Shown piece by piece: positions 26,111 through 48,560 of a stretch of 48,743 nucleotides of DNA. The translations under genes and the position numbers were made by a program. The notes beneath the pieces were generated by a model that was not told the origin of the DNA, made no database searches, and saw only the letters and a list, made by a program, of their open reading frames with translations. This stretch comes from Bacilli bacterium (GTDB lineage: Bacteria; Bacillota_I; Bacilli_A; RF39; UBA660), in contig JAZLAK010000018.1 of assembly GCA_045613165.1 (NCBI GenBank), positions 1-48,743 on the forward strand, read 5' to 3'. Each line of letters opens with the position of its first letter. The stretch's first letter is position 1.

Positions 26111-26117
26111 ATAATCC

Positions 26118-26300: not shown

Positions 26301-26318
26301 TAAATATAGAGGTGCAGT

Positions 26319-27260: not shown

Positions 27261-27271
27261 TTTTTTATTTT

Positions 27272-27295
27272 TAAAAAAAAGAAGCATATGCTTCT
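27272..27295 (-). terminator. rho-independent terminator closing the T4SS-like cluster
   Basis: Palindrome agaagcat/atgcttct (27280-27295) directly after the coupling-protein stop codon, followed on the minus strand by T8. Confidence 0.6.
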
Positions 27296-33024: not shown

Positions 33025-35103
33025 TTATCCGTAAACATTCATATTATAAGTACCGTTTACAAACAAATCACATTCTGCTATTCTTCTTTTCTTTAAACCT
33101 TCTAAATAAGTACCTGAAGAATCACGTAATGCCTTTTGTTCCCACCAATTTGTACATAAAGCATCAGTTGAACTATATTTAGCATATGCATCAAAGAAAC
33201 CATTTATATTACCACAGTTAAATTGTAAACTTGCTAATGCACCAATTTGATTTTCACTTAAAGTAATACCTTTTGTAGATAGCATTCCCCTTATATTATT
33301 TAATCTTCCTTCAACATCTTCATAATATATTGAGTCAACTATTGCCTTAGGAACTAAACTTCCAACAGATAAAGTATCAGGATTTATACCATGTGCTCTA
33401 AATGCATCTGCATTATATTTTAATGTAATACCATGACCTACAGTAGGAATATCACCTTTATTTTGATAAACTTTATAATATTCACCTTCAACAGGACCAG
33501 TACCTTCCATATAGCCTATCCATTCTAACAATTGACTACCTGCACCACTAGGTCTAGGATTGTCAGCAGAAACAAAATTTAAAGGATCTTGAGTTGATGA
33601 TAAATCATTACCTCCAACTCTTACTTCAAAATGTAAATGTGCTCCTGTTGAGCTTCCACTATTTCCTACTTTACCAATTACTTGACCTCTTTTTACACTA
33701 TCTCCCATTTCAACATTAATACTATCTTTAGATAAATGTGCATATACAGTATAATTATTATCAACATGTTGAATAATAACGTAGTTTCCATATCCACCAC
33801 CACATGATTTATCTCCACCATCATTACAACTAACTCCATCACTTTTGGTAGATTTTATAACTACACCATCTTTACTAGCTATTACATTAGTAATTCCTTG
33901 ATCACCGGGAATATCAATTCCATTGTGCTTAGAATTTGGTTTACCAGTTACTGGATGAGTTCTAAAACCATATTTACTAGAAATAGATGTTTTTGCTGGA
34001 TCGCCCATTGCCATTATAGAACCACCTGACTCAGTAGTTTCATTACTTCCTATAGGCCACCAATAAAGATTGGAATTAGCACTATTAAAAGATTCTGAAA
34101 CTTTAGAAAAATTATCTAAACCATACATTTCTAATACACTTTTTATTCCTGCAATAATTCTCTTTCTAGCTTTAATAATATCATCTTTATGTTTTTCTAA
34201 TAACTCAGGATCACTTTCAGTAGCTTTATAAAAATCTTCCATACTTTTATATCCACTACGTTGCAACACTACATCAAAATAACTTCTTAAATGTTTTTTG
34301 TTATCAAAATAATCACTATTTTCTAAAAAATCATAAAAGAATTCTTCATTAACTTGTTTTTCGCTTGAAGTTTTTAAATAAGGAGATTTATATCCTAACT
34401 CTTTAGCAGCAGCATTACATTTTTTTTCATTTTCAGTTCCTAAAAAAGATAAACCTAAAGAATCAAAAAATGTACCTTTATACTTATCTATCTCAGCAAC
34501 ACATTTGCCATCAAGTACTTTAATAGAAGCTACTGAACAAGCTTGATAAGAATTTCCATTAGAATCAGTATATGTTTGAGGAGATTCATTAGCTTCACCA
34601 TAACAAACAGTACTATAACCAATAAAATTATTTATCAAACTTTTTAGACTATCAGTTTCATTATCAAAATACGATTTTGCTGTAACTCTATCACCATCGT
34701 CACTACCAATAAACTTATTCTTCGTAGTTTCATCTTCATCTATTTTATATGGATTATATTTTTTTTCTTCACTAGGATCAGCAAATGAATCAGCATTTAA
34801 ACCATAAAATACAGTAGCAATAATTATATTATCATTAACATATCCATATTTTTTTTGAACTTGATCTAATATTTCATATAACCTAGTATAGAACTTTTCT
34901 TTAGTTTTTAAAACATCATCAACACATTCTGTATCATCCTCATCACAAGTCGAAGTCCAAAAATTTTTATTTTGCTCTAAAAGTTTATCCCAATCAAAGT
35001 TAGAATATGCAAAACTAGCTGCATAAACACTAACTTTAATAGAAAAAAACGTTATTAAAAGAAAACTTAAAATAAGTAAACTTTTCAATAACTTTTTTTT
35101 CAT
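33025..35103 (-). CDS. secreted bifunctional peptidoglycan hydrolase: M23 metallopeptidase plus GH24 (phage-type) lysozyme
   Basis: Signal peptide. M23 motifs HNGIDI and GSSTGAHLHFEV. The C-terminal EWIGYMEG...IPTVGHGITL...QIGALASLQFNCG...GLKKRRIAE pattern is typical of GH24. Confidence 0.8.
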   Translation of the reverse strand: MKKKLLKSLLILSFLLITFFSIKVSVYAASFAYSNFDWDKLLEQNKNFWTSTCDEDDTECVDDVLKTKEKFYTRLYEILDQVQKKYGYVNDNIIIATVFYGLNADSFADPSEEKKYNPYKIDEDETTKNKFIGSDDGDRVTAKSYFDNETDSLKSLINNFIGYSTVCYGEANESPQTYTDSNGNSYQACSVASIKVLDGKCVAEIDKYKGTFFDSLGLSFLGTENEKKCNAAAKELGYKSPYLKTSSEKQVNEEFFYDFLENSDYFDNKKHLRSYFDVVLQRSGYKSMEDFYKATESDPELLEKHKDDIIKARKRIIAGIKSVLEMYGLDNFSKVSESFNSANSNLYWWPIGSNETTESGGSIMAMGDPAKTSISSKYGFRTHPVTGKPNSKHNGIDIPGDQGITNVIASKDGVVIKSTKSDGVSCNDGGDKSCGGGYGNYVIIQHVDNNYTVYAHLSKDSINVEMGDSVKRGQVIGKVGNSGSSTGAHLHFEVRVGGNDLSSTQDPLNFVSADNPRPSGAGSQLLEWIGYMEGTGPVEGEYYKVYQNKGDIPTVGHGITLKYNADAFRAHGINPDTLSVGSLVPKAIVDSIYYEDVEGRLNNIRGMLSTKGITLSENQIGALASLQFNCGNINGFFDAYAKYSSTDALCTNWWEQKALRDSSGTYLEGLKKRRIAECDLFVNGTYNMNVYG

Positions 35104-35118: not shown

Positions 35119-36921
35119 TTAAAATCCTCCGCCAGAACCAAATGAATCTAATTCTTCTTGAGTAAGGATTACATTAATTCTCATACGTCTACTTCCACAT
35201 ACAAACAATGCCTCTCCTTGACTATAACCTTTAATGCTTTCCTTTTCATTATCATTTAAATCTATTAATCTAGATAAATCTTCAACAGCTTGTTTCTTTA
35301 ATCCCATAACTAAGTAATATGAAGCATTATCAAATATTGCTTTACCATGAACTATTACATTTTCAGCAGCAAAGTCTGTAGGTTGTTGAGTAATTATTAT
35401 AGTACCAGTATTATACTTTCTACTACGTCTTTGCATTTGAGCTAAAAACTCAGCACCTAATTCATTTCTACCGCCTAATAAAACATGAGCTTCATCTACC
35501 ATTAATACTGTATTAACACTAGGATCTAAACATAATCCCCAAGCATACTTTAATATATTAAAGAATAATGCATTTCTAATACTTTCATCACTATTCATTA
35601 ATTCACGAATATTAAATACCATAAAATCACTATCTTGACTTATAGTTGTATGACCATTAAAGTAATATCTTAATTCCTTAACAAAAGGACGAATCTTTAA
35701 TTCTAATCTTTCCATTACATCTTTTTCACGAGTTGCTTCAGGCATAGATAAAAGTTTACCTTTAATAGTACTATATACATCATCAAATGTTGGATAATCT
35801 TTAGATGTAAAACCGCTAAAATCAGTATTAAAATCTATTTTAAAACGTTTATAAGTATCTTGAACAACTTCACTAAACATAGCTAAAACATCTTCTTCAA
35901 TATCAGGACTATAATATTTCAAGAATGCTTTTAAAGATTGTAACGTACGAGTTAATACTGTATATCCTAAACCATTTTTTAATTCTTCTTCATCAGCATC
36001 TACAACTACTTCTAATGGATTTATAATACCAAATTGACCACCCTTACCTAAGTCAATAAAATCTCCTCCAAAAGATTTAGTCATTTCTTCTAACTCACCC
36101 TCTGGGTCAATACAAATTAATTGACAACCATTTCTAATATGAGTTCTTAACATTAACTTAGCAGCAGTTGATTTACCACTACCACTTGTACCTAAAATAA
36201 TTAAGTTAGCATTATTTCTATTAAATTCTTTCTTAGTTTGATATAAGAATTGATTAAATAGAACAACACCACCAGAGAAGTCAACTCCTAATAAAGTTGG
36301 AGCAGTAAATTCTCCTCCTGGGTCTTTTATACTATCAAACACAAATGGATACATTGCAGCAATTGTTGGACTTGGTATTGGAATACCAACTCTCTCTTCA
36401 ATATCTTGTTTAGGGAATATTGGTATCATTGATTTAAGTACTTTTTCTTGTTCAAACATCATAGGAATACCACGCATACCTAGAGCATCTAAATAATTTC
36501 TAGTTTGCATCTTTTTCATTTCTAATTCTTCTTTAGAATCAGCAGATAACATTACATGCATTTGGAAATCAAATATTTTAGATTGAGTAGCTGCTAACAT
36601 AGAAACAAAACTTTCTAAAGATTCATAATCTTGACGAATACTTTCTTGCATTGTTCTATCATTTTCATGTTGATATCTTTCTTTTAAGTCCGCTATCTCT
36701 TTATTAATCATTTTACTCATTGTACTAAATTCAATTGGAATATGTTTAACAACAACTTTAACACCAGGTAAATTAGTAACATTACTTAAAAATCCAGGAC
36801 CAATTAATTTAGGATAATTAATTATTGTTAAAATAGTACAATATTTATCACTTATTACAAAATCATTTAATTTAAAATCTATTCCCTTTGGAGCTATTTC
36901 ACTCTTAAATGTATTAGACAC
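35119..36921 (-). CDS. VirB4-type T4SS ATPase, C-terminal 600 aa part (GTG start)
   Basis: Walker A LGTSGSGKSTAAK and Walker B LMVDEAHVLL. It begins with the middle region of Gram-positive VirB4/TcpF/PrgJ-type proteins, not their N-domain. Confidence 0.85.
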   Translation of the reverse strand: MSNTFKSEIAPKGIDFKLNDFVISDKYCTILTIINYPKLIGPGFLSNVTNLPGVKVVVKHIPIEFSTMSKMINKEIADLKERYQHENDRTMQESIRQDYESLESFVSMLAATQSKIFDFQMHVMLSADSKEELEMKKMQTRNYLDALGMRGIPMMFEQEKVLKSMIPIFPKQDIEERVGIPIPSPTIAAMYPFVFDSIKDPGGEFTAPTLLGVDFSGGVVLFNQFLYQTKKEFNRNNANLIILGTSGSGKSTAAKLMLRTHIRNGCQLICIDPEGELEEMTKSFGGDFIDLGKGGQFGIINPLEVVVDADEEELKNGLGYTVLTRTLQSLKAFLKYYSPDIEEDVLAMFSEVVQDTYKRFKIDFNTDFSGFTSKDYPTFDDVYSTIKGKLLSMPEATREKDVMERLELKIRPFVKELRYYFNGHTTISQDSDFMVFNIRELMNSDESIRNALFFNILKYAWGLCLDPSVNTVLMVDEAHVLLGGRNELGAEFLAQMQRRSRKYNTGTIIITQQPTDFAAENVIVHGKAIFDNASYYLVMGLKKQAVEDLSRLIDLNDNEKESIKGYSQGEALFVCGSRRMRINVILTQEELDSFGSGGGF

Positions 36922-37474
36922 TACTCATCACCGTCCCAAACTCACTCTTCATATTCCCGTTAAAGAAACTATCAATTACTACTCTTAAGTCTTCATCACT
37001 TACTTGTCTAGAATTTAAACCAGATGTAGCAAGATTACTAATTAAAGTATGAATTCTTTTTTGTAATACTTCAGTTTTCTTATCTCTAAACAAAATATAA
37101 TATTCAGTATCTACTGCATTAACAGTTGTATTTCTAAACATTTCACCTTTATCTATATCTTGTTTAATTAATTTTCTTATTTGTTGACTTTGAACATTGT
37201 TATACATTAATTGTAATTGTGCCAAATACATATTTATATCAACAGGTCTATCACAAACAACCAACCAAAATTCATAATCAATTACATTATAAAAATTTCT
37301 TAAATTAAATATAATATTATTTTGTTCTTGATAATCAAGAATAAATATATTTTTAGGTTCTATTCTAACTCCAGTTACATAATAATCATTATCTAACTGT
37401 ATCATACCATTCTTTATAGTTTTAATAGGAACCCAATCTTCCGTATATTTGCTAGTATTATTATTTTTCGCCAC
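36914..37474 (-). CDS. VirB4 N-terminal-domain-like protein (separate 186 aa ORF)
   Basis: DWVPIKTIKNGMIQLDNDYYVTGVRIEPKNIFIL... resembles the N-terminal start of Gram-positive VirB4 homologues. Overlaps the ATPase ORF by 8 nt (GTGTCTAA). Confidence 0.55.
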   Translation of the reverse strand: MAKNNNTSKYTEDWVPIKTIKNGMIQLDNDYYVTGVRIEPKNIFILDYQEQNNIIFNLRNFYNVIDYEFWLVVCDRPVDINMYLAQLQLMYNNVQSQQIRKLIKQDIDKGEMFRNTTVNAVDTEYYILFRDKKTEVLQKRIHTLISNLATSGLNSRQVSDEDLRVVIDSFFNGNMKSEFGTVMSSV

Positions 37475-37775
37475 GATTCATACACCAACCTCTCCAATAA
37501 TGACTTCTTCTATTAGTAAAGTAATTATAAACATTACCTATAAAAGTTCTAATATTATGATGATTTGGTACTGGAAGTACCAAAAAAGCACTTATCAAAG
37601 CAGGAGTAATTATCATAAAAGCCTGCTTTAAATTACTTGTATCCATTATAAATAACAATAAGAATGTTATTACACAACCAGTACCAAATATAACTAAATC
37701 AGTAGGATTAAAGAAGCCAAGTATCAACATAGACTTCTTTGAATTCGCTGGTATCAAATATCCATTTTCACCCAT
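37461..37775 (-). CDS. small two-TM membrane protein, VirB3-like (PrgI/TcpE class)
   Basis: 104 aa with two hydrophobic helices, immediately upstream of and overlapping the VirB4 genes. Confidence 0.5.
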   Translation of the reverse strand: MGENGYLIPANSKKSMLILGFFNPTDLVIFGTGCVITFLLLFIMDTSNLKQAFMIITPALISAFLVLPVPNHHNIRTFIGNVYNYFTNRRSHYWRGWCMNRGEK

Positions 37776-37793: not shown

Positions 37794-40268
37794 TCATTTT
37801 TTATCTTTTCTTTCTTGCTCTAATTTAGTTTGATGTTTATAAGCTACACTTAATTTATCTGCACTTAATTGACCTTTTAATGCACCAGAAGAACCATTTA
37901 AACCTTCACGAGCTTTTCCAGTAATAGGATCTATAGAACCATCACCTTCCAATAATTTAACAATTAAATCTTCGCTAACTAAATTTCCATTACCATCTAC
38001 AACTTTATTATCTTTTATAGTTAATGAACCAAGTTGATCCATTTGAGCATCACTTAATTGTAATTTCTCTCTTATTATTTCTAATTCTACTGGATCTGAA
38101 TTTAAAGATTGACTAAACTCATATGCAACATAAGCAGCATTTTGAAGATTATTTTTAATTGCATCTACACGCTTTGACTTCATTTGTTGTTCCAATCTAC
38201 TAATAGCATTATCTAAATCAGCACCTGCAGAAATACCGTCATACCCATGACCAGCAGCTTGAGCTGCTTTCATTTCTTTTAAACGTGTATCCATCGCTGT
38301 ATAACCACCACTCTTATACATACTTTCATAATCATCAAAATGACTTATTACATCTTCCTCATATTTAATAGTATCTAATATATCTCGACCACCATCAAAC
38401 CCTGTCCAAGAACCAGCAGCAGCTACAGAATCTCCTATACGACCTTTTATAACTCCTCTTAGATTACCGCCATGCAATGCTTTATATTTAGCTCTTTCTT
38501 TTCTTTTTGCAGTAGTTTCATCAATCGCACGATCAGCATTCATCCCTAAATTATCTAAAGTGCTTCCATAGCCAGCTTTAGCTCCTCTTCGAGCACCTCC
38601 TACTAATCCACCTACAGTGCTACCTATAACACTACCAATACTCTTTCCTTCTCTAATACTTCTAAACATATTACGCGAAGCACTTCCAAATCCTCCTCGA
38701 GCCAGTCCCATTGCTCCCATTGCAAGTTTATTGTCACTAAGTTGTTTCTTAGGACTTTTAAGACTAAAGTTCCCTTTTCCTCCACCGAAGAATTGTTTAA
38801 ATAATTCTGGTGCTTCTAAAGCAAACTGTAATATTCCTAATATAACTACAACTGATGCTAAACCAGATAATAATGAAAAACCTCCAGTAGTTGCAAATAA
38901 ATTAGAAATAACATCTGGAACTAAACTTACTCCAAATAAAGAAAAATATATTATAATTAATCTAATAAATACATCTAAATATGTATTTAATAATTCTTTT
39001 AACCATTTATCAAATATAGCTTCCTTTTGTTTCGGAACAATTCTCATCATTACAGTTATAGGTGATACAATTTGTAAAAATCCTAACTTAGCAACTCGCT
39101 TTCCAATTGCTAAAGTATAACATACAAACATATACAAACCTAAACAACCAGCTATAAATGCTAAAAAATAATTAAATTCAAAAGTATCTTCATCACCTTT
39201 TATTCTATTAATAAATTCCGAATCTTCATTGAATACAGCCATATTTCCAGAATATTTTGCCATATCTACATCATAAACATAAAAAGCACAAATTTTCTTT
39301 TCATCTTCAGTATCTATTTTTCCATTTTGAGTATCATCACTACTTGTATTACCTTCATCAAATGTATAATTACAACTAGAATCATTTCCACAAGTCTTTA
39401 AATAATTAACACATTCATTATAACCAAATTTTGTTGGATGATAAAAAGCTGAAAAAATGGTTGGAGCAACTATTCTTGCTCCTTTTTCCACATCAGGCAA
39501 AGCATTATACAATTGACATGATGCAGATAAATTTGTAGTTACTTGATTGTCGTTATAACCAAACCAAGTTGCTATTTGTTTTATACCACCTACAATAGTA
39601 CCACCTACACAGCCTATAACACCACCAGCTGCTGCTCCTATACCAAGCCCCGCAGCATGACCAATAATATTTCCAACAACCGGAACCGCTGAACCAATTG
39701 TAGTACCTCCTACAGCTCCAACAGTACCACCAATGGCAGCACCGCCAGCACCACCTTTAACACAATAAGTACCAATAGAAACATCTTGTTTTTCAGCATC
39801 AATATGTGTATTTAGCATCTCCATATCAGCATAATCACAATCATCTTCAGAAGTTGAATCTCCTAATATAATTTGTCCAATAATATTACTATTTAATACA
39901 TGATATTGAAACGTATTCATATATTTAAATATTGTTGGCAACAAAATAATTAAAACTAAAGATATTATAGTTTCTTTAACAATTTTTGTAGTTTGACCTG
40001 TACTTTTCTTTTCTTCAGGATTTATAATCATAAGTACAAGATTATACGCAAAAATAAATAGCATCGCTATTCCCATTATTACATACAATCTACCTGTAAT
40101 TTGTTCAAAAACTTCATCACTAAACAAACTAACATTAGCTACAGTAACAAATAATTGATAAATAGTTGAAATTAACCCATATACCATAGAGTTAAGACTT
40201 AACCATATACTCATCCAAGTTTCAGCTACTGCTTCAGTAAAAAAACCACCTAAACTTAATAAACTCAT
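37794..40268 (-). CDS. VirB6/TrbL-like polytopic channel protein with glycine-zipper insert and ~330 aa hydrophilic C-terminal domain
   Basis: 824 aa, multiple TM helices, and a TrbL-like core (LGFLQIVSPITVMMRIVPKQKEAIFDKWLKELLNTYLDVF). Size and tail resemble TcpH/Orf15-type proteins. Confidence 0.65.
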   Translation of the reverse strand: MSLLSLGGFFTEAVAETWMSIWLSLNSMVYGLISTIYQLFVTVANVSLFSDEVFEQITGRLYVIMGIAMLFIFAYNLVLMIINPEEKKSTGQTTKIVKETIISLVLIILLPTIFKYMNTFQYHVLNSNIIGQIILGDSTSEDDCDYADMEMLNTHIDAEKQDVSIGTYCVKGGAGGAAIGGTVGAVGGTTIGSAVPVVGNIIGHAAGLGIGAAAGGVIGCVGGTIVGGIKQIATWFGYNDNQVTTNLSASCQLYNALPDVEKGARIVAPTIFSAFYHPTKFGYNECVNYLKTCGNDSSCNYTFDEGNTSSDDTQNGKIDTEDEKKICAFYVYDVDMAKYSGNMAVFNEDSEFINRIKGDEDTFEFNYFLAFIAGCLGLYMFVCYTLAIGKRVAKLGFLQIVSPITVMMRIVPKQKEAIFDKWLKELLNTYLDVFIRLIIIYFSLFGVSLVPDVISNLFATTGGFSLLSGLASVVVILGILQFALEAPELFKQFFGGGKGNFSLKSPKKQLSDNKLAMGAMGLARGGFGSASRNMFRSIREGKSIGSVIGSTVGGLVGGARRGAKAGYGSTLDNLGMNADRAIDETTAKRKERAKYKALHGGNLRGVIKGRIGDSVAAAGSWTGFDGGRDILDTIKYEEDVISHFDDYESMYKSGGYTAMDTRLKEMKAAQAAGHGYDGISAGADLDNAISRLEQQMKSKRVDAIKNNLQNAAYVAYEFSQSLNSDPVELEIIREKLQLSDAQMDQLGSLTIKDNKVVDGNGNLVSEDLIVKLLEGDGSIDPITGKAREGLNGSSGALKGQLSADKLSVAYKHQTKLEQERKDKK

Positions 40269-40278
40269 TTTGTCACCT

Positions 40279-40632
40279 CTACTCTATACAAACATTACTA
40301 TCAATTGATACTAAATCTAAAAGTAAATTAATTAATACTGGCAAAAAGAAAAGTATTATAGCGCATACCAATCTTTTCAAAAGTATCTGAAAAGCTTTTT
40401 TTAAACCTTTATCATCTTTAGCAGTTACTGCTTTAATAAAATCATAAGTACTTAAACCAATTATCAATAAAGGAACTATTATTTTTACAAAATCAAAAAC
40501 ATTTTGTAAATCTTGTTTAACATCTCCCCAACTATTGCAATCTAAAGTATCAGCAAAAACAATAGTTTTAAAACTATACATTACTAAAAATATAATCATA
40601 AATATATATATAAATTTCTTATTACTCTTCAT
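40279..40632 (-). CDS. VirB2/T4SS-pilin-like protein, paralogue 1
   Basis: Signal peptide (…TIVFA/D), then two TM helices flanking a K/D-rich loop. Shares the core IIVPLLIIGLSTYDFIKAV...LPVL with the ORFs at 40714 and 43086. Confidence 0.55.
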   Translation of the reverse strand: MKSNKKFIYIFMIIFLVMYSFKTIVFADTLDCNSWGDVKQDLQNVFDFVKIIVPLLIIGLSTYDFIKAVTAKDDKGLKKAFQILLKRLVCAIILFFLPVLINLLLDLVSIDSNVCIE

Positions 40633-40713
40633 AAAAATTCCTCTATCTAAAAATTAGTATTATACGTATAAAGTATAACATAAAAAAAAACAACAGTAAA
40701 GTTGTTTATTTTA

Positions 40714-41067
40714 TTAATTACATTGACTTGGATGTAAGAAACAAGTTTCACAAGTTTTGAAACTTTCAGCATCTGCTGAATAATCATTAACAAATGTACC
40801 AAAAATCCATAAAACTAAATTTGGAATTAAGAATATTACTATACCAGCAATAACTCTATAAATTAATCTCTTAGTTTGTTTCTTAATTTCATCTTCTTTT
40901 TCTGCTATAACTGCTTTACCAAAATCAAATATACCTAAAGCAATAATTAATAAAGGAATAGCAATTTTAAATACTAATAAAATATATCCTATAATTTGCA
41001 CTATATCTTTCATTTGTGTACAAAATGATGTAATATCAAATCCAGCAGCTAAACTAAATAAATTCAT
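40714..41067 (-). CDS. VirB2/T4SS-pilin-like protein, paralogue 2
   Basis: Core IAIPLLIIALGIFDFGKAV...FLIPNL and C-terminal KTCETCFLHPSQCN. Has its own promoter. Confidence 0.55.
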   Translation of the reverse strand: MNLFSLAAGFDITSFCTQMKDIVQIIGYILLVFKIAIPLLIIALGIFDFGKAVIAEKEDEIKKQTKRLIYRVIAGIVIFLIPNLVLWIFGTFVNDYSADAESFKTCETCFLHPSQCN

Positions 41068-41096
41068 ATCAATACCTCTTCTTTCTTTATAACAAT

Positions 41097-41125
41097 ATTT
41101 TAAAAAATATAACCTTTATTGTCAA
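41097..41125 (-). promoter_or_regulatory. internal promoter (TTGACA-17-TAAAAT) for pilin-like paralogue 2
   Basis: On the minus strand, TTGACA (41125-41120), a 17 nt spacer, and TAAAAT (41102-41097). An AGAAGAGG RBS follows. Confidence 0.5.
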
Positions 41126-41130
41126 CCTTT

Positions 41131-42165
41131 TTAAAATCTTTTGCCAAATAAACCACGTTTTTTAAAATTATCTCCACACTTAGTATATCCTAATTTAGTT
41201 AATAATTTATCAACGCTTATAACTCTATCTAAATTATCTCTAAAATTAGATACTACACTAAACACTTTAATTTTACTTTCAACTTCGAACTCAGCAACTT
41301 GATTATCATCCATATTAGTTCTATTAATAACAACCTTTTCTCCACTTAGTTCTTCAAATATTTTACCATTTCTTCTAATCAACTTTGTCATTTTAATAGT
41401 ACCAGGTTCAATTAAATATATGATATCAGAACAAAACGCTTTGCTATCTACTGCATTTAAATCAACAATAACAGCATCAGCATCTTGATGATCTTTTATT
41501 TTTTTCAACACTTCTTCTTTACTAGTACAAGAATATAAATTAGGAGTATCAAAGAAAATAAAATCTTGTTTATTCATCTCTATACCGATAGCTTTATACT
41601 TTATATTCAATTGTTTTACCATTTGTACAACTAAAGTAGTTGCACCAGCATGTTCAGTTAAATTTACAACACCAATAATCTTTTTATTACCATTATATTT
41701 ATCAGGTAAAACGAAATCTTGAAAAGTAAACTCTTTATCATAATTAATCCCTAATTCTTCATCTATTTCTTTATTTATTTCATAAGAACTTTTACTAATT
41801 TGTAAATTTGATACATCTTTAAACTCTTTAGGACTATTAAACATTTCAATAATTTCATTATAATTTATAGTAAAATTATAAACTCCTAAAGTAACTAAAT
41901 CACTTATAAAATTTTCATTATTACTAATATCATTTAAATATAATATAATTTTTTTACTATCTATACTCTCAAATAACTTCTTTAAATTATTATAATCATT
42001 ATAATCTTTAATAGCAGTTACATCTAATATCATTTTATTAAAGAAAAAATTAGTAAACATATCAATTAATTCTTCTACAGTATAAATACCATCTACACTT
42101 TTAATAACATCTATACTCAAACTATTAAGTTCATATCTTTTCTCATTACTAACTATAACATTCAT
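41131..42165 (-). CDS. two-domain protein: receiver-like N-domain plus ParA/MinD-fold domain with degenerate P-loop (TadZ/CpaE-like architecture)
   Basis: The N-terminal ~115 aa show an alternating beta/alpha pattern. KIIGVVNLTEHAGATTLVVQMV lacks the Walker lysine. DAVIVDL is Walker B-like. Confidence 0.35.
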   Translation of the reverse strand: MNVIVSNEKRYELNSLSIDVIKSVDGIYTVEELIDMFTNFFFNKMILDVTAIKDYNDYNNLKKLFESIDSKKIILYLNDISNNENFISDLVTLGVYNFTINYNEIIEMFNSPKEFKDVSNLQISKSSYEINKEIDEELGINYDKEFTFQDFVLPDKYNGNKKIIGVVNLTEHAGATTLVVQMVKQLNIKYKAIGIEMNKQDFIFFDTPNLYSCTSKEEVLKKIKDHQDADAVIVDLNAVDSKAFCSDIIYLIEPGTIKMTKLIRRNGKIFEELSGEKVVINRTNMDDNQVAEFEVESKIKVFSVVSNFRDNLDRVISVDKLLTKLGYTKCGDNFKKRGLFGKRF

Positions 42166-42179
42166 ACTTTAACCCACCT

Positions 42180-42656
42180 TTAACATGTTGAAGTATCATT
42201 TGGAAAATAAATTGATTCCGTTTCCCCTTTTATTCTAAAAGTTGTTAAATCACCAAACATAGGTAAATCTATTTTAAAAAACACTACAACTCTAAAAAAT
42301 TCTTTATCAATAACTGTAGTTGAAGCATCATTAGCATCTTTAGAAATACAATAGTAACCCTTATTACTACTACTCTTACTTCCATCCAAATTATATGCAA
42401 TATATTCGTACGGATTTTTATCATTTTTTTCCGGACAAGTCCCAGGAACTAAATAACCATCTGTTTTTAAATATTCCCCTATTTTCTTTCTAGCACAAGG
42501 ATTATTGCCTTCATATTTACTAATCAAATCAACAATATTATTCTTTACATCAAATGCTTTCGCATAATTTATTGAAACAGCTAAAAAAGAGGCAAAGAAC
42601 ACTATAAATGTTATTACCAACCCAAATAACCAAGTTCCTCCAATTGCCTCTCTCAT
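42180..42656 (-). CDS. TadE-like pseudopilin candidate / bitopic exported protein
   Basis: MREAIGG followed by a 22 aa hydrophobic segment, then a beta-rich domain with 4 Cys and an ending (FRVVVFFKIDLPMFGDL...) reminiscent of TadE-type proteins. Confidence 0.3.
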   Translation of the reverse strand: MREAIGGTWLFGLVITFIVFFASFLAVSINYAKAFDVKNNIVDLISKYEGNNPCARKKIGEYLKTDGYLVPGTCPEKNDKNPYEYIAYNLDGSKSSSNKGYYCISKDANDASTTVIDKEFFRVVVFFKIDLPMFGDLTTFRIKGETESIYFPNDTSTC

Positions 42657-42677
42657 ATTTCATTACCTCACTTTTAA

Positions 42678-42989
42678 TTATTTAGAAAAAATAATCATGC
42701 CAGTACCAGTTCCAGTACCAGTACCAGTTCCAGTTCCAGTTGAATTTGTTGTTTTATCATCACAATATACTGTACCAGTTGTTGAACATTCATCATTTTG
42801 ACAGTATTCACATTTAACTTTACCACTTGTACCATCTGGTTGACAGTTAAATGCTTGTGAACAACGTGTAGAAGCTGTAATTCCAGACTTTATAGAAGGC
42901 CAAATTAATGTAGTAAACAATACTCCTACTGCCGCAATAGCAACTACTGCTACGGCAGTCATACTTAATTCTCCACTTGCTTCTTTCAT
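42678..42989 (-). CDS. pilin-like protein with class-III-signal-like N-terminus, 6-Cys domain and (TG)7 tail
   Basis: MKEASGE followed by a 22 aa Ala/Val-rich hydrophobic helix. Has its own strong promoter and an AGGAAAGGA RBS. Confidence 0.4.
   Translation of the reverse strand: MKEASGELSMTAVAVVAIAAVGVLFTTLIWPSIKSGITASTRCSQAFNCQPDGTSGKVKCEYCQNDECSTTGTVYCDDKTTNSTGTGTGTGTGTGTGMIIFSK
42699..42740 (-). repeat. hexanucleotide tandem repeat (ACTGGN)x7 encoding (Thr-Gly)7
   Basis: Seven consecutive in-frame ACT-GGN units, read directly near the 3' end of the pilin-like gene. Confidence 0.9.
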
Positions 42990-43023
42990 ATATATATCAA
43001 ATCCTTTCCTATTTTATACTTAT

Positions 43024-43051
43024 ATTATATCAAAACTAATTCGTTATACAA
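43024..43051 (-). promoter_or_regulatory. internal promoter (TTGTAT-16-TATAAT with TGn extended -10)
   Basis: On the minus strand, TTGTAT (43051-43046), a 16 nt spacer ending in TGA, and TATAAT (43029-43024). Confidence 0.5.
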
Positions 43052-43085
43052 GTATTTAATTTTACTTTTACAAATTATTAACAAT

Positions 43086-43544
43086 CTAATTATCACTTAT
43101 ATTACAATTACCAGGTTTTAATAAACAATCAGCACAAGTTTTATATTGACCTGTTTCAATAATATTTAATTTATCACTCATACTAAATACTACAGCTACT
43201 ATATTTGGTACAAAGAAAACTATTAAACCAGCTAATATTCTTATACCCAATTGTTTAACTTGTTTACCTAAACTTTTTTCATCTTTATCTATTACAGACT
43301 TAGCTAAATCAAATGTTCCTAAACCAATTATGATTAAAGGAACAGCAACTCTAGCTATTAATAAAACATATCCAAATAATCTCATAACTGTTTTAATGGA
43401 ATTTTCATCACAAGGATTTTCAGCAACATATTCTACAGCTTGAGTAGTTGAAGGTGCAGCATTAACATTCATTGCACAAAACATAAAAAACGATAATATA
43501 AATAAACTAAATACAAATATTCTTTTCTTACTACTCATATTCAT
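43086..43544 (-). CDS. VirB2/T4SS-pilin-like protein, paralogue 3
   Basis: Start reset to MNMSSKKR (ATG at 43544 or 43538), which overlaps the upstream stop codon. Signal peptide (…NVNA/A), core VAVPLIIIGLGTFDLAKSV...FFVPNI, and C-terminal KTCADCLLKPGNCN. Confidence 0.55.
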   Translation of the reverse strand: MNMSSKKRIFVFSLFILSFFMFCAMNVNAAPSTTQAVEYVAENPCDENSIKTVMRLFGYVLLIARVAVPLIIIGLGTFDLAKSVIDKDEKSLGKQVKQLGIRILAGLIVFFVPNIVAVVFSMSDKLNIIETGQYKTCADCLLKPGNCNISDN

Positions 43545-44541
43545 ACTTATCCCCCATCTTACTTTGAATGAATTTTTTATAAATATAATATCCACCAGCT
43601 ATTAACGCTAATATTAAAATAATTATAAATATAATACTTAATGCATTAGATTTTTCTTTTAAGGATATATCAAGAACATAAACATTTTCAGTTCCATCTT
43701 CTGCAGTAACAGTTATAGTAACTCTACTACCATCAGTTAAATTTTCATTACCTGTAATAGTTACTACCGCTTTCTCATCCTCTACTTCATAATCTATTTC
43801 CAATTCACTAACTTGAGAATCCAATTTAATTGGATATTCATTGATTTTTGAATTGAATGGTATATTATATCCTTTAACACTTAAAGAACTTAATTTAGCA
43901 TTACTAGACATAATATAAACTTCTTTTGAAATATTAATTTTATATTCAGTAGAACTATTATCAGTACCAATTACTATTATACTAATTACACTACCATTTT
44001 CTATATTAGTATTATTCTTTATTTCTACTTTACTATTTTCATCTTCTGGTATAGCGGTAATATCTATTGAATTAATAGTAGAATCTACATTTACTGTATA
44101 TTCATAAATTTCTGGATTAAAAACTATATTCCCATTAGATAAAGTTAGTGATTTTAATTTTGTATTAACAATTACTGCTGTTGTTGTAGTTGTTGATGAT
44201 GTAGTTTTTGTTGTTTTTGTTTTAGTAGTTTTCTTTGTAGTAGTAAACTTAGCACCATTTGAGGTTCTAGAACAATCATAATCAAAAACAATATAACAAC
44301 TTCTAGTTTCTCCTATATTACAAACTTTATTAGTGAATTCTTTACATGTATCAGTTACTGTACTAGTATACGGAGATTTGTTCCCATTAGAACAACTATA
44401 TGTTTTAGGATTATCATACACCAATTCGTAATTAAAGTTATTTTTACATGTTGCAGTTACGCTATACTGACGTTGTTCAGCATTAATAATACTTGGAAAA
44501 ATTAACATTCCTATAACAAATAACAATAAATTTTTCTTCAT
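43531..44541 (-). CDS. TM-anchored surface protein: 6-Cys N-domain, T/K linker, two cadherin-like beta-sandwich repeats
   Basis: Signal peptide. Repeats of the type LKSLTLSNGNIVFNPEIYEYTVNV... and LSSLSVKGYNIPFNSKINEYPIKL.... C-terminal TM helix plus a charged tail. No LPXTG. Confidence 0.6.
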   Translation of the reverse strand: MKKNLLLFVIGMLIFPSIINAEQRQYSVTATCKNNFNYELVYDNPKTYSCSNGNKSPYTSTVTDTCKEFTNKVCNIGETRSCYIVFDYDCSRTSNGAKFTTTKKTTKTKTTKTTSSTTTTTAVIVNTKLKSLTLSNGNIVFNPEIYEYTVNVDSTINSIDITAIPEDENSKVEIKNNTNIENGSVISIIVIGTDNSSTEYKINISKEVYIMSSNAKLSSLSVKGYNIPFNSKINEYPIKLDSQVSELEIDYEVEDEKAVVTITGNENLTDGSRVTITVTAEDGTENVYVLDISLKEKSNALSIIFIIILILALIAGGYYIYKKFIQSKMGDKYEYE

Positions 44542-44554
44542 ATTTTCAACTCCT

Positions 44555-44583
44555 AAAAAAAGAAGATAATATGATTACCTTCT
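44555..44583 (-). terminator. internal rho-independent terminator
   Basis: On the minus strand, a 10 bp stem agaaggtaat / attatcttct (one G-U pair) followed by T7. Overlaps a possible TTGAAA-18-TATTAT promoter. Confidence 0.55.
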
Positions 44584-44637
44584 CTAACTTTTCAATCATA
44601 TTCTATATAAATATGATAAACTATTTTATTAATAAAA

Positions 44638-45234
44638 TCAAATATTTTTAAATAAATTGAATTTTTTTGTTAATAACATAAAACTATATGATATTATTGC
44701 TACTATTCCCAATACTATAAAATATGTATTTACTCCTAGTTCCTCTTGTTCTCCTGGATCAGCACTATTATAATTATTTCCTACATTTGTATTGTTACTT
44801 ACTTGATTTTCTAATTGTACCGAACCATTTCCATTGTCACTTGTACATGTTATATAATATTCTTCTGAAAAATATCCTGTTCCGTTTATTTTTGTTCCTT
44901 CTTCTACATAAGGAGAATTACCTGTACTACCTAATGTATAATTTATATACTTTTCTCCATTAGAACATTTTACACTTCTACTTAATACTTTTTCTAAATT
45001 TAATGAATTTACATAACTTATACTACATGTTGTTCCATTACAAACTGCTTTACCATATACTGTTACCCAATCATTTCCATTTACATTTGTTGTTGTTATC
45101 CCATTAGTATAATTAGATTGTAATGTTGAATAATTATCATCACCCGGATCAGCATTAGTTGCTGCAGCATTTACATTTAATCTTACAGCAACTAAACTAA
45201 TCATTATTATATTTAGTATTAATATCTTCTTCAT
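44638..45234 (-). CDS. TM-anchored surface protein, 4 Cys, unknown function
   Basis: Signal peptide (…NVNA/A), an N/G/T-rich ectodomain, and a C-terminal TM helix. The CSNG motif is shared with the 336 aa protein. Confidence 0.5.
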   Translation of the reverse strand: MKKILILNIIMISLVAVRLNVNAAATNADPGDDNYSTLQSNYTNGITTTNVNGNDWVTVYGKAVCNGTTCSISYVNSLNLEKVLSRSVKCSNGEKYINYTLGSTGNSPYVEEGTKINGTGYFSEEYYITCTSDNGNGSVQLENQVSNNTNVGNNYNSADPGEQEELGVNTYFIVLGIVAIISYSFMLLTKKFNLFKNI

Positions 45235-45246
45235 CTTTACCTCTCC

Positions 45247-48200
45247 TTATTCTTCAAAATACTCTCTATTAGCTTTCGATTTTTTCTTTACTATTATTAT
45301 GCCACTACTTACTAATATTATTACAACTCCAGCCACTATTGAAGCTATTTCTATTGTTTTATTGAAAGCATCTTTCTTTATGTCTATTGAATAAGTCTCA
45401 TATTCTCCATTTTCAGCAACAACTTTTACTCTAACTGTACTGAATCCAGTTAACTCATCATTACCTCTTATGAATACTTCTGCTCTATTATTATTTGGTA
45501 CAGCAGTTATTACTAAACTCTTTTCTTGTTTTATCTTAACTGTATATTCTTTTTTATTTGGATCAAAATCTATAGCTTTCTCATAATTTAATACTCTTAA
45601 ATCTTTTAATGTAGTATCATTTGAAACTTCTAATCCAAACTCTTTTCTTATTATCGTTAATCTATAATAACTTTCTTCATTTTCCTTATCGATTACTCTT
45701 ATTTCTATAAAGTTTTCTCCAACATCTAAACCTATACCCTTATTAGATACAACTTTATATTCAGTATCACTCTTTTTCTTAATACTTATACTAGCAATAC
45801 TATCTTCATCTTTTAATACACTATTTATATCTATTGTATCAGTTTCATAACCAACACTTAAACTATAATTTGCTATATCTTCTTCGAAAGGCATATATAC
45901 TCCAGGAATTACTAAATCTTCTATTTGTAAAGATTCTTTTGTTATTGTATCAGTACCTTCTTTTACAAAAGTTAATACATAAGTTCTTGTACTTCCTGTT
46001 TCACTTTTAACTTTTATTAATTTAACTGTTGTATCTCCATTAATATCAATTATATCAGGTTCATAACCACTAACATAACTAGCTTTATTACTTGCTATAG
46101 TTGCTTGAACATCCACACTAGTAGTTGATTTAGGAACTTCAATTTTATAATCAGTTACATTAGCATTAAAGTTAATATCGCCAACATTTAATATTATATC
46201 ACTTAAAGTATTATCACTTGTTCTACTATCAGTTCTAGTTACTAATATTGTATATGTTCTAGTAATGCCTTCTTTATTTTGAATCTTAATTAATACAGTA
46301 TTTATACCATAATTCAAATTAACTGTTCTTGGTTCAAAACCATCAACATATTTAGAATCTGTACTTGTTAATGTTGCATAAACACTAACAGTTGGTGAAT
46401 CTACTTCTAATTTATATTCCATATCATATGGGTTAAATGCATCTGCAACGACTTTACTATCTTTGCTTAAATCATTTGATAATCTAACATAATTATTGTT
46501 TTTAACATCAGCAACTTTATATGCTGTACCTGAACTTACAGGATTTTGAACATTACCATTTGCATCATATAATTGTAATTTATTAATTGTTGTATTCGTA
46601 TTAGTAGTATCTATTACAGCGCCACTAACCGCATTACTTATATTACCTTTGCTATCTCTTACCCAAATATATTTAACACCCGGACTTGATTCTATTGTAA
46701 ATGAATTACCATTAATTGGTACCCAAGTATTACTATCAGTTGGAGTTAAATAATAATCACTAGTAAAATATGAATCAATAACTCCTTCTTTAGCAGTAGC
46801 AGTTACTCTAATTGTTCCATAACCATTACTTTGTACTATTCCACTTGTTACGGATAATGTTGGTTTAGCACTATTTCCTTTTGTACAACTAACTCTATAA
46901 GTTCTTGTACATATTCCTTTAGAATTACAACTTTCTTTACTTTCAGCAGATACAGCTGTTCTGTCAAAATAATATCCGTTCTTAGTATCACATTTATAAT
47001 ATTCTTCTAAAAGTTCTTTAACTTCAGCATTAGTAGCATCTTTATCATAACAAATTGTATAAGAACTAGCCTTTCTCATACTCTTCATAGAAGTGTTAGA
47101 ACATTTATTATCTTCCAACTTATCACAAGCTTTTTTAGCATCACTTTGATTATCATCTAAATAATCTTTATCAATAGTACCATTTTCACTTATTTCACCA
47201 CTGGATTTCTTGATTTTAGTATAATTACAAGCATCACTAGTACAAGTTGTTATATATAATTGGTCTCCACAAGAATAATTTTGACCATTTAATTTTACAT
47301 ATCTATATCCTACATCTTCTGGAGTAGCAGTAGCAGTATTATCCGCACTACACGCTGCACCTTCATAAGTGCTAGCTAATTTCATTCTATAAATTTTTCT
47401 ATATTTTCCAGTAGAATTTTCATAATAATAACAATAATCTGTTCCACTTTCTTTTGTACAATACTCTATCCAAATTTGTTGTCCACATGTAAAATCTACA
47501 GAACCACCATCAGCAACATAATCTTTTTGTAAATATCTATATCCTCCGATATCTTCTCTATAACATGCATAAAAATCTGTATTAGCACTAACAGTAAATG
47601 AACTATCTTTAACGATTACATTACTATTACAATTTGGAGCACCATTTGAAACAGTTTTAGTCCATCCAATTAATTGACCTTGTCCATCTCTATACATACT
47701 TGAAGAACTAGCTGGAAAATTAACTTTAGTACCACCAGCAATTCCAGTTTTTTGACAAACTCCAGCAGTTGGAACTGAAAAACCAGCATCACAAGCTAAA
47801 CCATATCCATAATTTTGATCAAATAAAACTTTATAAGTTATTACCGTAGGAGAAGAACCTCCAGAAGAACCTCCAGATGTTCCACCACTTGAGCCTCCAA
47901 AAACACTACAACTTCCACTAGTAATATTACAACATCCATTATTGTTATTCCATAAATGACATTTACCTGAAACTACTTTAGCATTACAACTAGATTTTGT
48001 CCAAGTACCATAATTAGATTGTCCACAAGTATTTCCATTTTTCTTACTTGAAGTATTACAACATTTATTTGTTGAATCATAAGTATATCCTCTACCTGTA
48101 CATTCACTTATACTTCCCCAAGCTTTATTTGTTGTGCCGCATGTACTAAAACTTGTTGTTACTTTTCTTGTTGTAGTCGTATTAGAAGAACTTAACCCAG

Positions 48201-48525
48201 CATAACACGCGCCTTGTCTCCATATACATCCACTACTTGTACACTTACTATGATCTTTTATACTTCTACAATAACTTGTTGTTATCTTTCTTGTAGTTGT
48301 TGTAGTTTTCTTAGTAGTTTTCTTACTTGTTATCTTTGTACCATTATAACAAGCATTTTGTCTCCATATACAATTATAACCACCTGCTGTCTTACCTTGA
48401 CAATTAGTTTTTGATTTTATTGAAGTACATGTTGCAGCTTCTACAAACATTCCCATAATGAAAAAAAACAACATTCCCACAAATAACTTACTTAATTTTC
48501 GTTCATTAAAAGTTTTACTACTCAT
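45247..48525 (-). CDS. large cysteine-rich TM-anchored surface protein/adhesin with 4-5 C-terminal cadherin-like repeats
   Basis: Start reset to MSSKTF (GAGAGG SD upstream). Signal peptide, duplicated C-x-SIK...CIWRQxACY modules, a GGS linker, a Listeria-Bacteroides-repeat-like segment, repeated YRY...C modules, repeats of the type TLSDIILNVGDINFNANVTDYKIEV..., and a C-terminal TM helix. Confidence 0.65.
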   Translation of the reverse strand: MSSKTFNERKLSKLFVGMLFFFIMGMFVEAATCTSIKSKTNCQGKTAGGYNCIWRQNACYNGTKITSKKTTKKTTTTTRKITTSYCRSIKDHSKCTSSGCIWRQGACYAGLSSSNTTTTRKVTTSFSTCGTTNKAWGSISECTGRGYTYDSTNKCCNTSSKKNGNTCGQSNYGTWTKSSCNAKVVSGKCHLWNNNNGCCNITSGSCSVFGGSSGGTSGGSSGGSSPTVITYKVLFDQNYGYGLACDAGFSVPTAGVCQKTGIAGGTKVNFPASSSSMYRDGQGQLIGWTKTVSNGAPNCNSNVIVKDSSFTVSANTDFYACYREDIGGYRYLQKDYVADGGSVDFTCGQQIWIEYCTKESGTDYCYYYENSTGKYRKIYRMKLASTYEGAACSADNTATATPEDVGYRYVKLNGQNYSCGDQLYITTCTSDACNYTKIKKSSGEISENGTIDKDYLDDNQSDAKKACDKLEDNKCSNTSMKSMRKASSYTICYDKDATNAEVKELLEEYYKCDTKNGYYFDRTAVSAESKESCNSKGICTRTYRVSCTKGNSAKPTLSVTSGIVQSNGYGTIRVTATAKEGVIDSYFTSDYYLTPTDSNTWVPINGNSFTIESSPGVKYIWVRDSKGNISNAVSGAVIDTTNTNTTINKLQLYDANGNVQNPVSSGTAYKVADVKNNNYVRLSNDLSKDSKVVADAFNPYDMEYKLEVDSPTVSVYATLTSTDSKYVDGFEPRTVNLNYGINTVLIKIQNKEGITRTYTILVTRTDSRTSDNTLSDIILNVGDINFNANVTDYKIEVPKSTTSVDVQATIASNKASYVSGYEPDIIDINGDTTVKLIKVKSETGSTRTYVLTFVKEGTDTITKESLQIEDLVIPGVYMPFEEDIANYSLSVGYETDTIDINSVLKDEDSIASISIKKKSDTEYKVVSNKGIGLDVGENFIEIRVIDKENEESYYRLTIIRKEFGLEVSNDTTLKDLRVLNYEKAIDFDPNKKEYTVKIKQEKSLVITAVPNNNRAEVFIRGNDELTGFSTVRVKVVAENGEYETYSIDIKKDAFNKTIEIASIVAGVVIILVSSGIIIVKKKSKANREYFEE

Positions 48526-48560
48526 ATTAAAACCTCTCACTTTCTATTTTATACATCTTA

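Follow-up and report, generated by a model that had tools for sequence, protein, structure and literature searches.

Do the type IV secretion systems (T4SSs) of walled Bacilli include VirB2-like pilins? The question is raised by three short open reading frames (ORFs) on contig JAZLAK010000018.1 of a Bacilli bacterium (assembly GCA_045613165.1), which we refer to as the window; it is the entire 48.7-kb contig (48,743 nucleotides), with about 27% G+C and almost all genes on the minus strand. The original prediction, made by eye, took these ORFs for paralogous VirB2-like pilins with cysteines placed to staple their N- and C-termini together, and remarked that conjugation systems of Firmicutes are usually described as lacking such a pilin. 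The literature agrees on this last point, with Patescibacteria excepted: Guglielmini et al. describe monoderms as being without VirB2 homologues (PMC4027160), and a 2025 review gives Patescibacteria as the sole Gram-positive exception (PMC12857230). The reading to which we lean, with a confidence just past the halfway mark, is that the three ORFs encode disulfide-stapled VirB2-like T4SS subunits with the second paralogue as the major one, and they are probably a divergent branch, within Bacilli, of the T4SS_pilin (PF18895) family.

Cysteine-bearing tails in three hairpin proteins

All three ORFs are present on the minus strand where they had been placed, as are all other window features given by coordinates below. 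Paralogue 1 (40279-40632; 117 amino acids) has a signal peptide and a two-helix hairpin with one cysteine in each tail. Paralogue 2 (40714-41067; 117 amino acids) has the same hairpin without a signal peptide, with C16 in its N-tail and C106, C109 and C116 in its C-tail. Paralogue 3 (43086-43544; 152 amino acids) has a signal peptide, a mature N-tail of about 20 residues containing NPC, the hairpin, and a C-tail of the form KTCxxC...C. Its start is the ATG at 43544, as in its orthologues, and not the upstream GTG at 43595, and overlaps the 3' end of the upstream surface-protein gene; at the other end of the array, the stop codon of paralogue 1 lies 10 nt ahead of the start of a VirB6-like gene. 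The core motifs IIVPLLIIGLSTYDFIKAV, IAIPLLIIALGIFDFGKAV and VAVPLIIIGLGTFDLAKSV, the helix 2 ends FFLP, FLIP and FFVP, and the cysteine motif pairs LDCNSW with NVCIE, SFCTQ with KTCETCFLHPSQCN, and NPCDEN with KTCADCLLKPGNCN can all be found as quoted in the original prediction.

The paralogy that had been claimed by eye is borne out by an alignment of the three ORFs, with pairwise identities of 33-35% and 16 invariant columns. Cross-paralogue tblastn searches against orthologues in other genomes give E values of 1e-8 to 1e-24 and, because of these values and the conservation of the orthologues, the similarity goes beyond what chance would produce between hydrophobic peptides; chance likeness of hydrophobic ORFs was rejected on that conservation.

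Hydropathy gives two hydrophobic segments in each protein, in keeping with the proposal of two hydrophobic helices and a short charged loop, and a signal-peptide-like N-terminal segment in paralogues 1 and 3 and none in paralogue 2. In all three paralogues the inter-helix loops are rich in lysine and arginine (net charge +3 to +5) and the tails are acidic. An AlphaFold2 (AF2) model of paralogue 2, built from a 71-sequence alignment (predicted local distance difference test, pLDDT, 80), has helices at residues 20-54, 58-92 and 94-111, with a core of two 35-residue helices joined by a 3-residue turn (pLDDT 85-93). The topology predicted from hydropathy, loop charge and this model agrees with the idea that both tails would lie on the same, outer side of the membrane.

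A profile of the three ORFs yielded 259 word-sharing relatives, and the 120 that were listed and grouped fall into three groups in one-to-one correspondence with the three ORFs. Type A, the group of paralogue 2, is without a leader, about 116 amino acids long, and begins MxLLSLGA..FC; type B, the group of paralogue 3, combines a signal peptide with the motif YVAENPCDENSI, often with an extra Cys-rich N-terminal domain in front; and type C, the group of paralogue 1, has a signal peptide and ends in NVCIE. An exhaustive hidden Markov model (HMM) search of 1.84 billion cluster representatives identified 9,599 at E<=1e-3 and 4,159 at E<=1e-10, and many members of this wider family have extracellular N-terminal domains of 100-350 amino acids preceding the same C-terminal hairpin. 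Where proteins of the family are named in this wider search they are called 'hypothetical protein [Bacilli bacterium]', and a look-up of cluster-member names gave no source that names them. In type B relatives (P0121-P0268) the N-terminal domains are rich in cysteines and in CxxxxxC(K/R)W-like repeats, and in some the C-terminus is extended, for example by ...SSSGRTHGGTGGSF, an arrangement suggestive of modular subunits, adhesive or at the tip, that share one hairpin.

Each paralogue was expected to have cysteines in both tails, and each does, with one in the N-tail and one or three in the C-tail. The pattern extends across the family: one N-tail and three C-tail cysteines are present in 64 of 67 type A sequences, type C has a conserved pattern of one and one, and type B combines an odd N-side count with three C-tail cysteines. 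We counted cysteines in 282 family members with a recognisable core, taking the N-side after removal of any predicted signal peptide, and both counts are odd in 263 of them (93%). The same is true of 111 of 126 representatives clustered at 50% identity (binomial p ~2e-50 against a 25% null), and the N-side counts, which run 1, 3, 5 ... 29, are odd in 62 of the 70 proteins with extra domains (binomial p ~9e-12), these p-values ignoring shared ancestry and the N-terminal domains varying greatly in size and cysteine content. The neighbouring exported proteins of 103 and 158 amino acids have even counts (6 and 4). If all exported cysteines are paired, then one N-side cysteine must bond to a C-tail cysteine, either within the subunit or between neighbours. 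The idea of an N-to-C disulfide staple thus gains strong statistical support from a family-wide parity of sequence counts, and an inter-subunit disulfide would fit that parity equally well as an intra-subunit one.

Paralogue 2 is set apart by its expression signals. The strong promoter that had been pointed out ahead of it is a sigma-70-type site (TTGACA-17-TAAAAT, 11/12 matches) at 41097-41125, read 41125-41097, and is the best site in the region 40000-45400; promoter-like sites overall are not enriched, with 42 found against 45.5 expected in shuffled sequence. The promoter is conserved in ten other genomes, in which the -35 box, the -10 box and the ribosome-binding site GAAAGAAGAGG are kept and the flanks diverge. 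Right after the stop codon is a hairpin with a U-run (40680-40714; -12.5 kcal/mol, z = -3.65, with 0 of 200 shuffles as stable), which by its sequence is probably an intrinsic terminator; AACAACTTTACTGTTGTT and its T-run are kept in nine loci, have diverged in two (L009 and L010), and are represented by a different hairpin and T-run in another (L024). With a terminator of its own, paralogue 2 would be a separate transcription unit, and a conserved single-gene unit with strong signals is as expected of an abundant major structural subunit. After the terminator there is a TG-extended -10-like site (TTTACT-17-TATACT, 40700-40672), which may drive the genes downstream of paralogue 2.

Family matches and the neighbouring secretion genes

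The original prediction named two families to which the ORFs might belong, T4SS_pilin (PF18895; gathering cut-off 26.6 bits) and TrbC/VirB2 (PF04956). The first is the top Pfam match of paralogue 2 (E 5.4e-5, 23.6 bits, model positions 7-71 of 71) and of paralogue 1 (E 0.0029, 18.1 bits), and paralogue 3, which is 35% identical to paralogue 2, has no match to it in the Pfam scan at E<=1. It is also the commonest match among 71 relatives, 38 of which match at E<=0.01 (best 3.4e-6). The expectation therefore holds as to ranking, for two of the three ORFs and for many relatives, and fails as to score, none of the three ORFs reaching the cut-off. Some wider relatives pass it (P0251, at 26.9 bits), and 16 of 120 in a wider search have a precomputed PF18895 domain; the tie is one of superfamily level and not of curated membership. 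For PF04956 the outcome was negative, with no match to any of the three ORFs at E<=1 in a whole-Pfam scan.

The three proteins also have the general properties of the PF18895 family, namely a core of about 70 amino acids with two hydrophobic helices and a short polar loop (from AF2, hydropathy and the HMM span), encoded by a divergent paralogue array beside VirB4, VirB6 and VirB3 genes. Among NCBIfam models, NF045849 ('Mbov_0395 family pilin-like conjugal transfer protein'; equivalog cut-off 40 bits) matches paralogue 2 only, and weakly (E 0.0019, 17.9 bits), and is the commonest match of the relatives (17 of 71 at E<=0.01, best 1.3e-3, none at 40 bits). Proteins of that family are encoded directly upstream of Mbov_0396-type (VirB6-like) and Mbov_0397-type (VirB4) genes, and the array occupies this same position. 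The tie to VirB2-type pilins thus comes from PF18895 similarity, topology and gene context, and not from a fold match. The PHROGs and PADLOC scans gave nothing relevant, which disfavours a phage or defence origin.

Downstream of paralogue 1 are genes coding for a VirB6-like polytopic membrane protein of the CDS16 type of Mollicutes integrative and conjugative elements (ICEs) (37794-40268; 824 amino acids; NF045848 2.5e-12, NF045889 7.8e-8), a VirB3-like protein (37461-37775; 104 amino acids; weak TcpE match, corresponding to positions 2-79 of the fused Mollicutes VirB4 model), the N-terminal part of VirB4 (36914-37474; 186 amino acids; NF045975 match) and the VirB4 ATPase part (35119-36921; 600 amino acids; NF045975 VirB4_plasma 5.2e-104, AAA_10, P-loop_TraG). 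The last three ORFs overlap and together tile the fused NF045975 model, with E values of 5.2e-104, 1.3e-17 and 0.1 on consecutive profile parts, and since the split between VirB3 and VirB4 is kept in every related locus it is not a sequencing artefact. On the matches to NF045848, NF045889 and NF045975, the best-matching T4SS is that of the Mycoplasma ICE type. The VirB6-like protein begins MSLLSLGG..., resembling paralogue 2 (MNLFSLAAG...) in a weak likeness to the pilins, and a hairpin at its residues 51-116, strongly conserved in relatives, matches PF18895 at E 5.6e-4. Judging from sequence, there may be a pilin-like module in residues 1-120; a fused pilin domain was not adopted, as alignment to the family profile with hhalign gives E 0.028 and a probability of 1.8%.

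The cluster continues with a hydrolase containing M23 and lysozyme domains (33025-35103; Peptidase_M23 2e-26, Phage_lysozyme 5.5e-8), two ORFs without assigned function (32009-33009), an NlpC/P60 protein (30323-31996; NLPC_P60 2.3e-4), a further ORF without assigned function (29632-30312) and a VirD4 coupling protein (27296-29578; T4SS-DNA_transf 2.8e-57). Upstream of the array are genes for three surface proteins (43531-48540), all of which have a signal peptide and, at the C-terminus, a membrane anchor, and two of which have cadherin-like beta-sandwich domains (PF12733 4.4e-13 and 4.5e-21) and Cys-rich N-terminal regions. They are syntenic in related genomes with 39-72% identity, and are probable adhesins.

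VirD4 is followed on the same strand by a GT2 glycosyltransferase gene and the S10-spc-alpha ribosomal operon (VirD4 through the operon, 12137-29578), and beyond the operon are genes for MurC, a D-Ala-D-Ala carboxypeptidase, a prepilin peptidase and a PilC-like protein. The exact S10 protein is also found in several metagenome samples, on contigs that reach 233 kb (L014-L018), in which gene lengths differ from those of the window (VirD4 of 742 versus 760 amino acids) and a T4SS is again immediately upstream of the S10 operon; in a related metagenome-assembled genome (MAG), housekeeping genes (P-type ATPase, guanylate kinase, patatin-like) lie upstream of the first surface-protein gene. No cluster ORF has a Pfam relaxase or integrase domain. 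The comparison with classical Firmicute conjugative elements was not sustained, as the locus is instead chromosomal, without a recognisable relaxase, and fixed beside the S10 operon. An origin as a classical ICE or plasmid was rejected, with no Pfam relaxase or integrase, housekeeping genes on both sides and the same chromosomal site occupied elsewhere, and the T4SS looks like a fixed chromosomal feature of the lineage. Few components of Mycoplasma ICEs are recognisable outside Mollicutes, and the absence of a relaxase is therefore compatible with DNA transfer.

The whole gene order is common to 13 MAG loci, mostly from 'uncultured Bacilli bacterium' (Hadza human gut, rabbit and others), and the order pilin, pilin, VirB6, VirB3, VirB4 is kept in more than 12 genomes. 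Among the closer loci VirB4 is 90-99% identical, the pilins 48-90% and the putative adhesins 39-72%; conservation of VirB4 with divergence of the pilins and adhesins is the pattern expected for surface-exposed parts, as read from sequence comparison. A tblastn search with paralogue 2 against 72,556 plasmids gave no match, so no known plasmid among them carries a close relative. Two contigs (L007 and L012; CAYQJD01) have the same Bacilli-type cluster in a MAG labelled 'uncultured Muribaculaceae bacterium', the label being probably a mis-binning or labelling error and not a sign of transfer to Bacteroidota. In a rabbit-gut MAG (L009, 4468-8014), EpsG-family and YfhO-family genes are inserted between the type B pilin and Flp-like genes, which hints at glycosylation of surface components.

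Interleaved Tad-like genes and competing readings

An unusual feature of the array is the presence of three conserved Tad-like genes between paralogues 3 and 2. The first (42678-42989) codes for a 103-amino acid protein with an Flp-like leader and hydrophobic helix at its N-terminus (MKEASGELSMTAVAVVAIAAVG) and a Cys-rich tail with six cysteines, and this N-terminus is invariant in seven of nine related loci and near-identical in the other two. The second (42180-42656) codes for a 158-amino acid protein with an N-terminal anchor (MREAIGGTWLFGLVITF...) that is TadE-like by eye, and four cysteines. Neither has a Pfam or NCBIfam match, and both types occur in two to three copies behind Tad-like ATPase modules at two other loci (L022 and L024). 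At 42700-42741 the first gene includes a window-specific (ACTGGN)7 repeat, coding for (Thr-Gly)7 followed by a short tail, and its orthologues (81-94 amino acids) are without it; the repeat, which the terminator scan flagged as a hairpin, may be a microsatellite of variable length, or else an effect of assembly or of a frameshift.

The third gene (41131-42165) codes for a conserved 344-amino acid cytoplasmic protein with a receiver/flavodoxin-like N-domain and a MinD/ParA-like SIMIBI C-domain, whose degenerate Walker A motif (TEHAGATT) is without the lysine. None of its 1502 homologues has a Pfam domain. Its AF2 model (pLDDT 79) matches MinD, ParF, FlhG, BcsQ and HypB in Foldseek at E 1e-4 to 7e-6 and IcmF at 5.5e-7, and on the strength of this model it is probably a TadZ/CpaE-like, non-catalytic positioning protein. 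In the related loci its gene is always directly upstream of paralogue 2.

More distant Bacilli have larger Tad-like modules (L024, 1437-15864; L022, 1215-9399; L019, 4819-10432), in which genes for DUF5411, a CpaB/RcpC-like protein, a T2SSE ATPase and two membrane proteins (~297 and ~262 amino acids) precede the block of Flp-, TadE- and TadZ-like and pilin genes. The best NCBIfam matches of the ATPase are VirB11 (2e-31) and the TadA family (1.3e-27). In L024 the Tad-like block is followed by pilins, VirB6, VirB3 and VirB4. The ancestral locus seems to have combined Tad-like parts with those of a T4SS, its hairpin family is not exclusively VirB4-linked, and a T4SS-only reading is not secure, both because Tad-like genes are interleaved in the array and because some relatives are found beside a Tad-like ATPase module without VirB4. 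A T4SS affiliation is favoured since the cluster in the clade of the window is without ATPase and platform genes of that kind, yet has three paralogues beside VirB6, VirB3 and VirB4. The window also codes for a prepilin peptidase (A24_N and Peptidase_A24) and a 541-amino acid PilC-like T2SSF protein at 9335-11724, just past rpoA and L17, which could process the Flp-like 103-amino acid protein; the scan of window ORFs, which did not extend to several small ones, turned up no T2SSE ATPase.

Several observations weigh against VirB2-like subunits. In two of the distant loci (L022 and L019) the pilin-like genes end the Tad-like module and have no VirB4 or VirB6 gene adjacent. Curated cut-offs are reached by none of the three paralogues, either for PF18895 (23.6 bits, 18.1 bits and no match, against 26.6) or for NF045849 (17.9 against 40 bits), and Pfam gives no PF04956 or TraA-family match for the three ORFs and the 71 relatives. 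A sequence profile search of the PDB returned only transmembrane helices TM5-TM6 of G-protein-coupled receptors and MscS helices, at E >=0.005 and judged spurious. Foldseek comparison of the pLDDT-80 model of paralogue 2 with the PDB gave nothing at E<=0.001, short helical hairpins being poorly discriminated, and the best matches are generic hairpins (HtrII, ATP-synthase c) at E >3. Hairpins of two helices are also very common among membrane proteins. The likeness to VirB2-type pilins that had been proposed thus stands as to topology and PF18895 ranking, and among solved VirB2/TraA pilins there is no significant match in either sequence or fold. Finally, the Mycoplasma ICE protein CDS15 is called VirB3-like and not pilin-like in a recent review (PMC12857230).

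The last of these leads to the best surviving alternative, which we nonetheless consider unlikely: that the three proteins are non-polymerising inner-membrane channel parts, either VirB3-like or accessory like Mycoplasma ICE CDS13/CDS15, which help to assemble or gate the VirB6/VirB4 complex and form no fibre. Their position equals that of CDS15, which is essential for transfer (PMC6030558), and conjugative pili are not known for monoderm T4SSs (PMC4027160); the weak NF045849 matches and the lack of a Foldseek match to solved pilins fit as well. However, the VirB3 role is already filled by the separate ORF at 37461-37775, and the consistent Pfam match is to a pilin family and not to VirB3, there being no Pfam match to VirB3, TcpE or PrgI for any of the three paralogues. 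Three divergent paralogues, the large variable extracellular domains of type B orthologues, and the strong promoter and terminator of paralogue 2 are likewise hard to explain for a stoichiometric channel part.

A second alternative, which we regard as more doubtful again, is that the hairpin proteins serve a Tad-like (type IVc pilus-like) machine, as a membrane accessory or unconventional fibre subunit of a VirB11/TadA-like ATPase, and that the lineage of the window keeps only remnants of the Tad-like module beside its T4SS. It accounts for the constant place of paralogue 2 behind the TadZ-like gene, the Flp- and TadE-like proteins between paralogues 3 and 2, the ATPase modules that precede the block in L024 and L022, the pilin-like genes that close the module in L022 and L019 away from VirB4 and VirB6, and the prepilin peptidase and PilC-like gene within the window. 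But the window and more than 12 relatives have no T2SSE ATPase or platform genes in the cluster and retain all three paralogues beside VirB6, VirB3 and VirB4, with only 10 nt between paralogue 1 and VirB6; the family-level matches of the hairpin proteins are to T4SS-related families only, and the L019 ATPase scores best as VirB11, itself a T4SS component. Type IV and Tad pilins, furthermore, have a single helix and a prepilin motif, in contrast to the three paralogues, which have two helices and no prepilin-peptidase leader, and whose only pilin or Flp match in Pfam is a meaningless one to PF13400 at E 0.69. That the ORFs have nothing to do with the T4SS beside them and code for small peptides, secreted or in the membrane (such as holin-like, bacteriocin or immunity proteins), is very improbable: two helices with Cys-rich tails are the shape of some immunity and holin proteins and no curated family cut-off is reached, but PHROGs and PADLOC have no relevant match, synteny with T4SS genes is strict even across genomes whose pilins are down to 58% identity, no toxin, lysin-cassette or bacteriocin-processing genes are adjacent, and a pilin family is the consistent top match.

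Likeness to described systems and what it would mean

With VirB2-like subunits as the preferred reading, the nearest counterpart in the literature is found in Patescibacteria, whose T4SSs, for instance in Southlakia epibionticum ML1 and Nanosynbacter lyticus TM7x, include arrays of VirB2-like pilins. An array there consists of 2-11 divergent VirB2-like genes (PF18895 or PF04956) near virB4, with a mean identity of 25% and a maximum of 54%, and is chromosomal and mostly without a relaxase (PMC12102498); the Southlakia array is essential (PMC12857230). The window shares with them small two-helix proteins matching PF18895 (PMC12102498, PMC12857230), divergent paralogues arrayed beside VirB6, VirB3 and VirB4 genes of monoderm (MPF-FATA-related) type, a chromosomal location in a monoderm host, usually with no relaxase, and a site that is probably highly expressed (the S10 operon here, near dnaA there). 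It differs in its host, a walled gut Bacilli lineage, with sub-threshold scores that mark a divergent branch; in its conserved cysteine pattern (one in the N-tail, one or three in the C-tail; CxxCxxxPxxC); and in its leaderless presumed major subunit, interleaved Tad-like genes, VirD4 and two cell-wall hydrolases.

Mycoplasma ICE CDS15 (Mbov_0395, NF045849) is likewise a small two-helix protein encoded directly upstream of CDS16 (Mbov_0396) and CDS17 (Mbov_0397) homologues, but it is a single-copy gene of a mobile ICE in a wall-less host using genetic code 4, whereas the window has three paralogues with Cys-bearing tails at a chromosomal locus of a walled host. The Agrobacterium VirB2 T-pilin and RP4 TrbC (PF04956) are similar in predicted topology, with a basic cytoplasmic loop and both termini outside, in gene position at the head of the virB3/virB4 region, and, as proposed here, in the covalent joining of the termini. 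Unlike the window paralogues, which have no PF04956 or fold match to them, they have a long cleaved signal peptide, absent from paralogue 2, and the join in the window would be a disulfide and not a peptide bond; no TraF-type cyclase or signal-peptidase-like gene was found among the cluster ORFs scanned with Pfam, and the host, a monoderm, has none of the VirB7, VirB9 and VirB10 proteins of an outer-membrane core complex. Bartonella Trw, with multiple VirB2 and VirB5 copies (PMC12857230), is comparable in having several variable pilin paralogues in one T4SS locus, and fast-diverging surface components with a conserved ATPase. It belongs to a diderm proteobacterium, is without VirD4, and has recent tandem copies, in contrast to the three old and distinct orthologous groups and the VirD4 of the window.

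We propose that each protein would insert as a helical hairpin, with its basic loop in the cytoplasm and both tails outside, as hydropathy, the positive-inside rule and the AF2 model suggest. Types B and C would do so via a cleaved Sec signal peptide, and the leaderless type A directly, as ATP-synthase subunit c does. The cysteine just before helix 1 and a C-tail cysteine would then form a disulfide closing the hairpin, as the odd/odd parity indicates, in a functional analogue of the head-to-tail cyclisation of T-pilin and RP4 TrbC. Paralogue 2, with its near-consensus promoter, strong ribosome-binding site and own terminator, would be the abundant major subunit, and paralogues 1 and 3 minor or specialised ones, with the large Cys-rich domains of type B in tip or adhesive subunits. 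By analogy with VirB and R388, the VirB3/VirB4 ATPase may extract subunits from the membrane and stack them on the VirB6-like platform, so that a short conduit or pilus passes through the wall where the M23/lysozyme and NlpC/P60 hydrolases have opened it, with VirD4 feeding the substrate. By analogy again, being chromosomal, without a recognisable relaxase, and fixed beside the S10 operon in several species, the system looks less like one for plasmid conjugation than like the essential T4SS, with its pilin array, of Patescibacteria.

The window extends the pilin-array kind of T4SS to Bacilli, and what is new in it is the cysteine pattern, the leaderless probable major subunit and the Tad-like genes. 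The family is mostly annotated as hypothetical, and it bears on the view that VirB2 pilins are confined to Patescibacteria among monoderms. The origin of the Patescibacteria pilins, whether from a monoderm ancestor or co-opted from diderms, was left undecided (PMC12102498). That a pilin-like family of about 9,600 representatives in Bacilli sits in a T4SS of Mollicutes-ICE/MPF-FATA type suggests that at least one branch of monoderm T4SSs has VirB2-like subunits as a native part. The locus raises the questions of whether a T4SS pilus crosses the Gram-positive wall, whether a disulfide takes the place of pilin cyclisation, and why genome-reduced gut Bacilli keep a T4SS without a recognisable relaxase beside a ribosomal operon. 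A tentative answer, to which we would give only a small chance of holding as a whole, is that these bacteria use a vertically inherited composite of Tad-like and T4SS parts, with no recognisable relaxase, to assemble a VirB2-like pilus stapled by disulfides, and that this pilus serves an interbacterial or host-dependent way of life, similar to that of epibiotic Patescibacteria, and not plasmid transfer. If true, it would be the first conjugative-type pilus in Bacillota, and would offer a disulfide alternative to pilin cyclisation.

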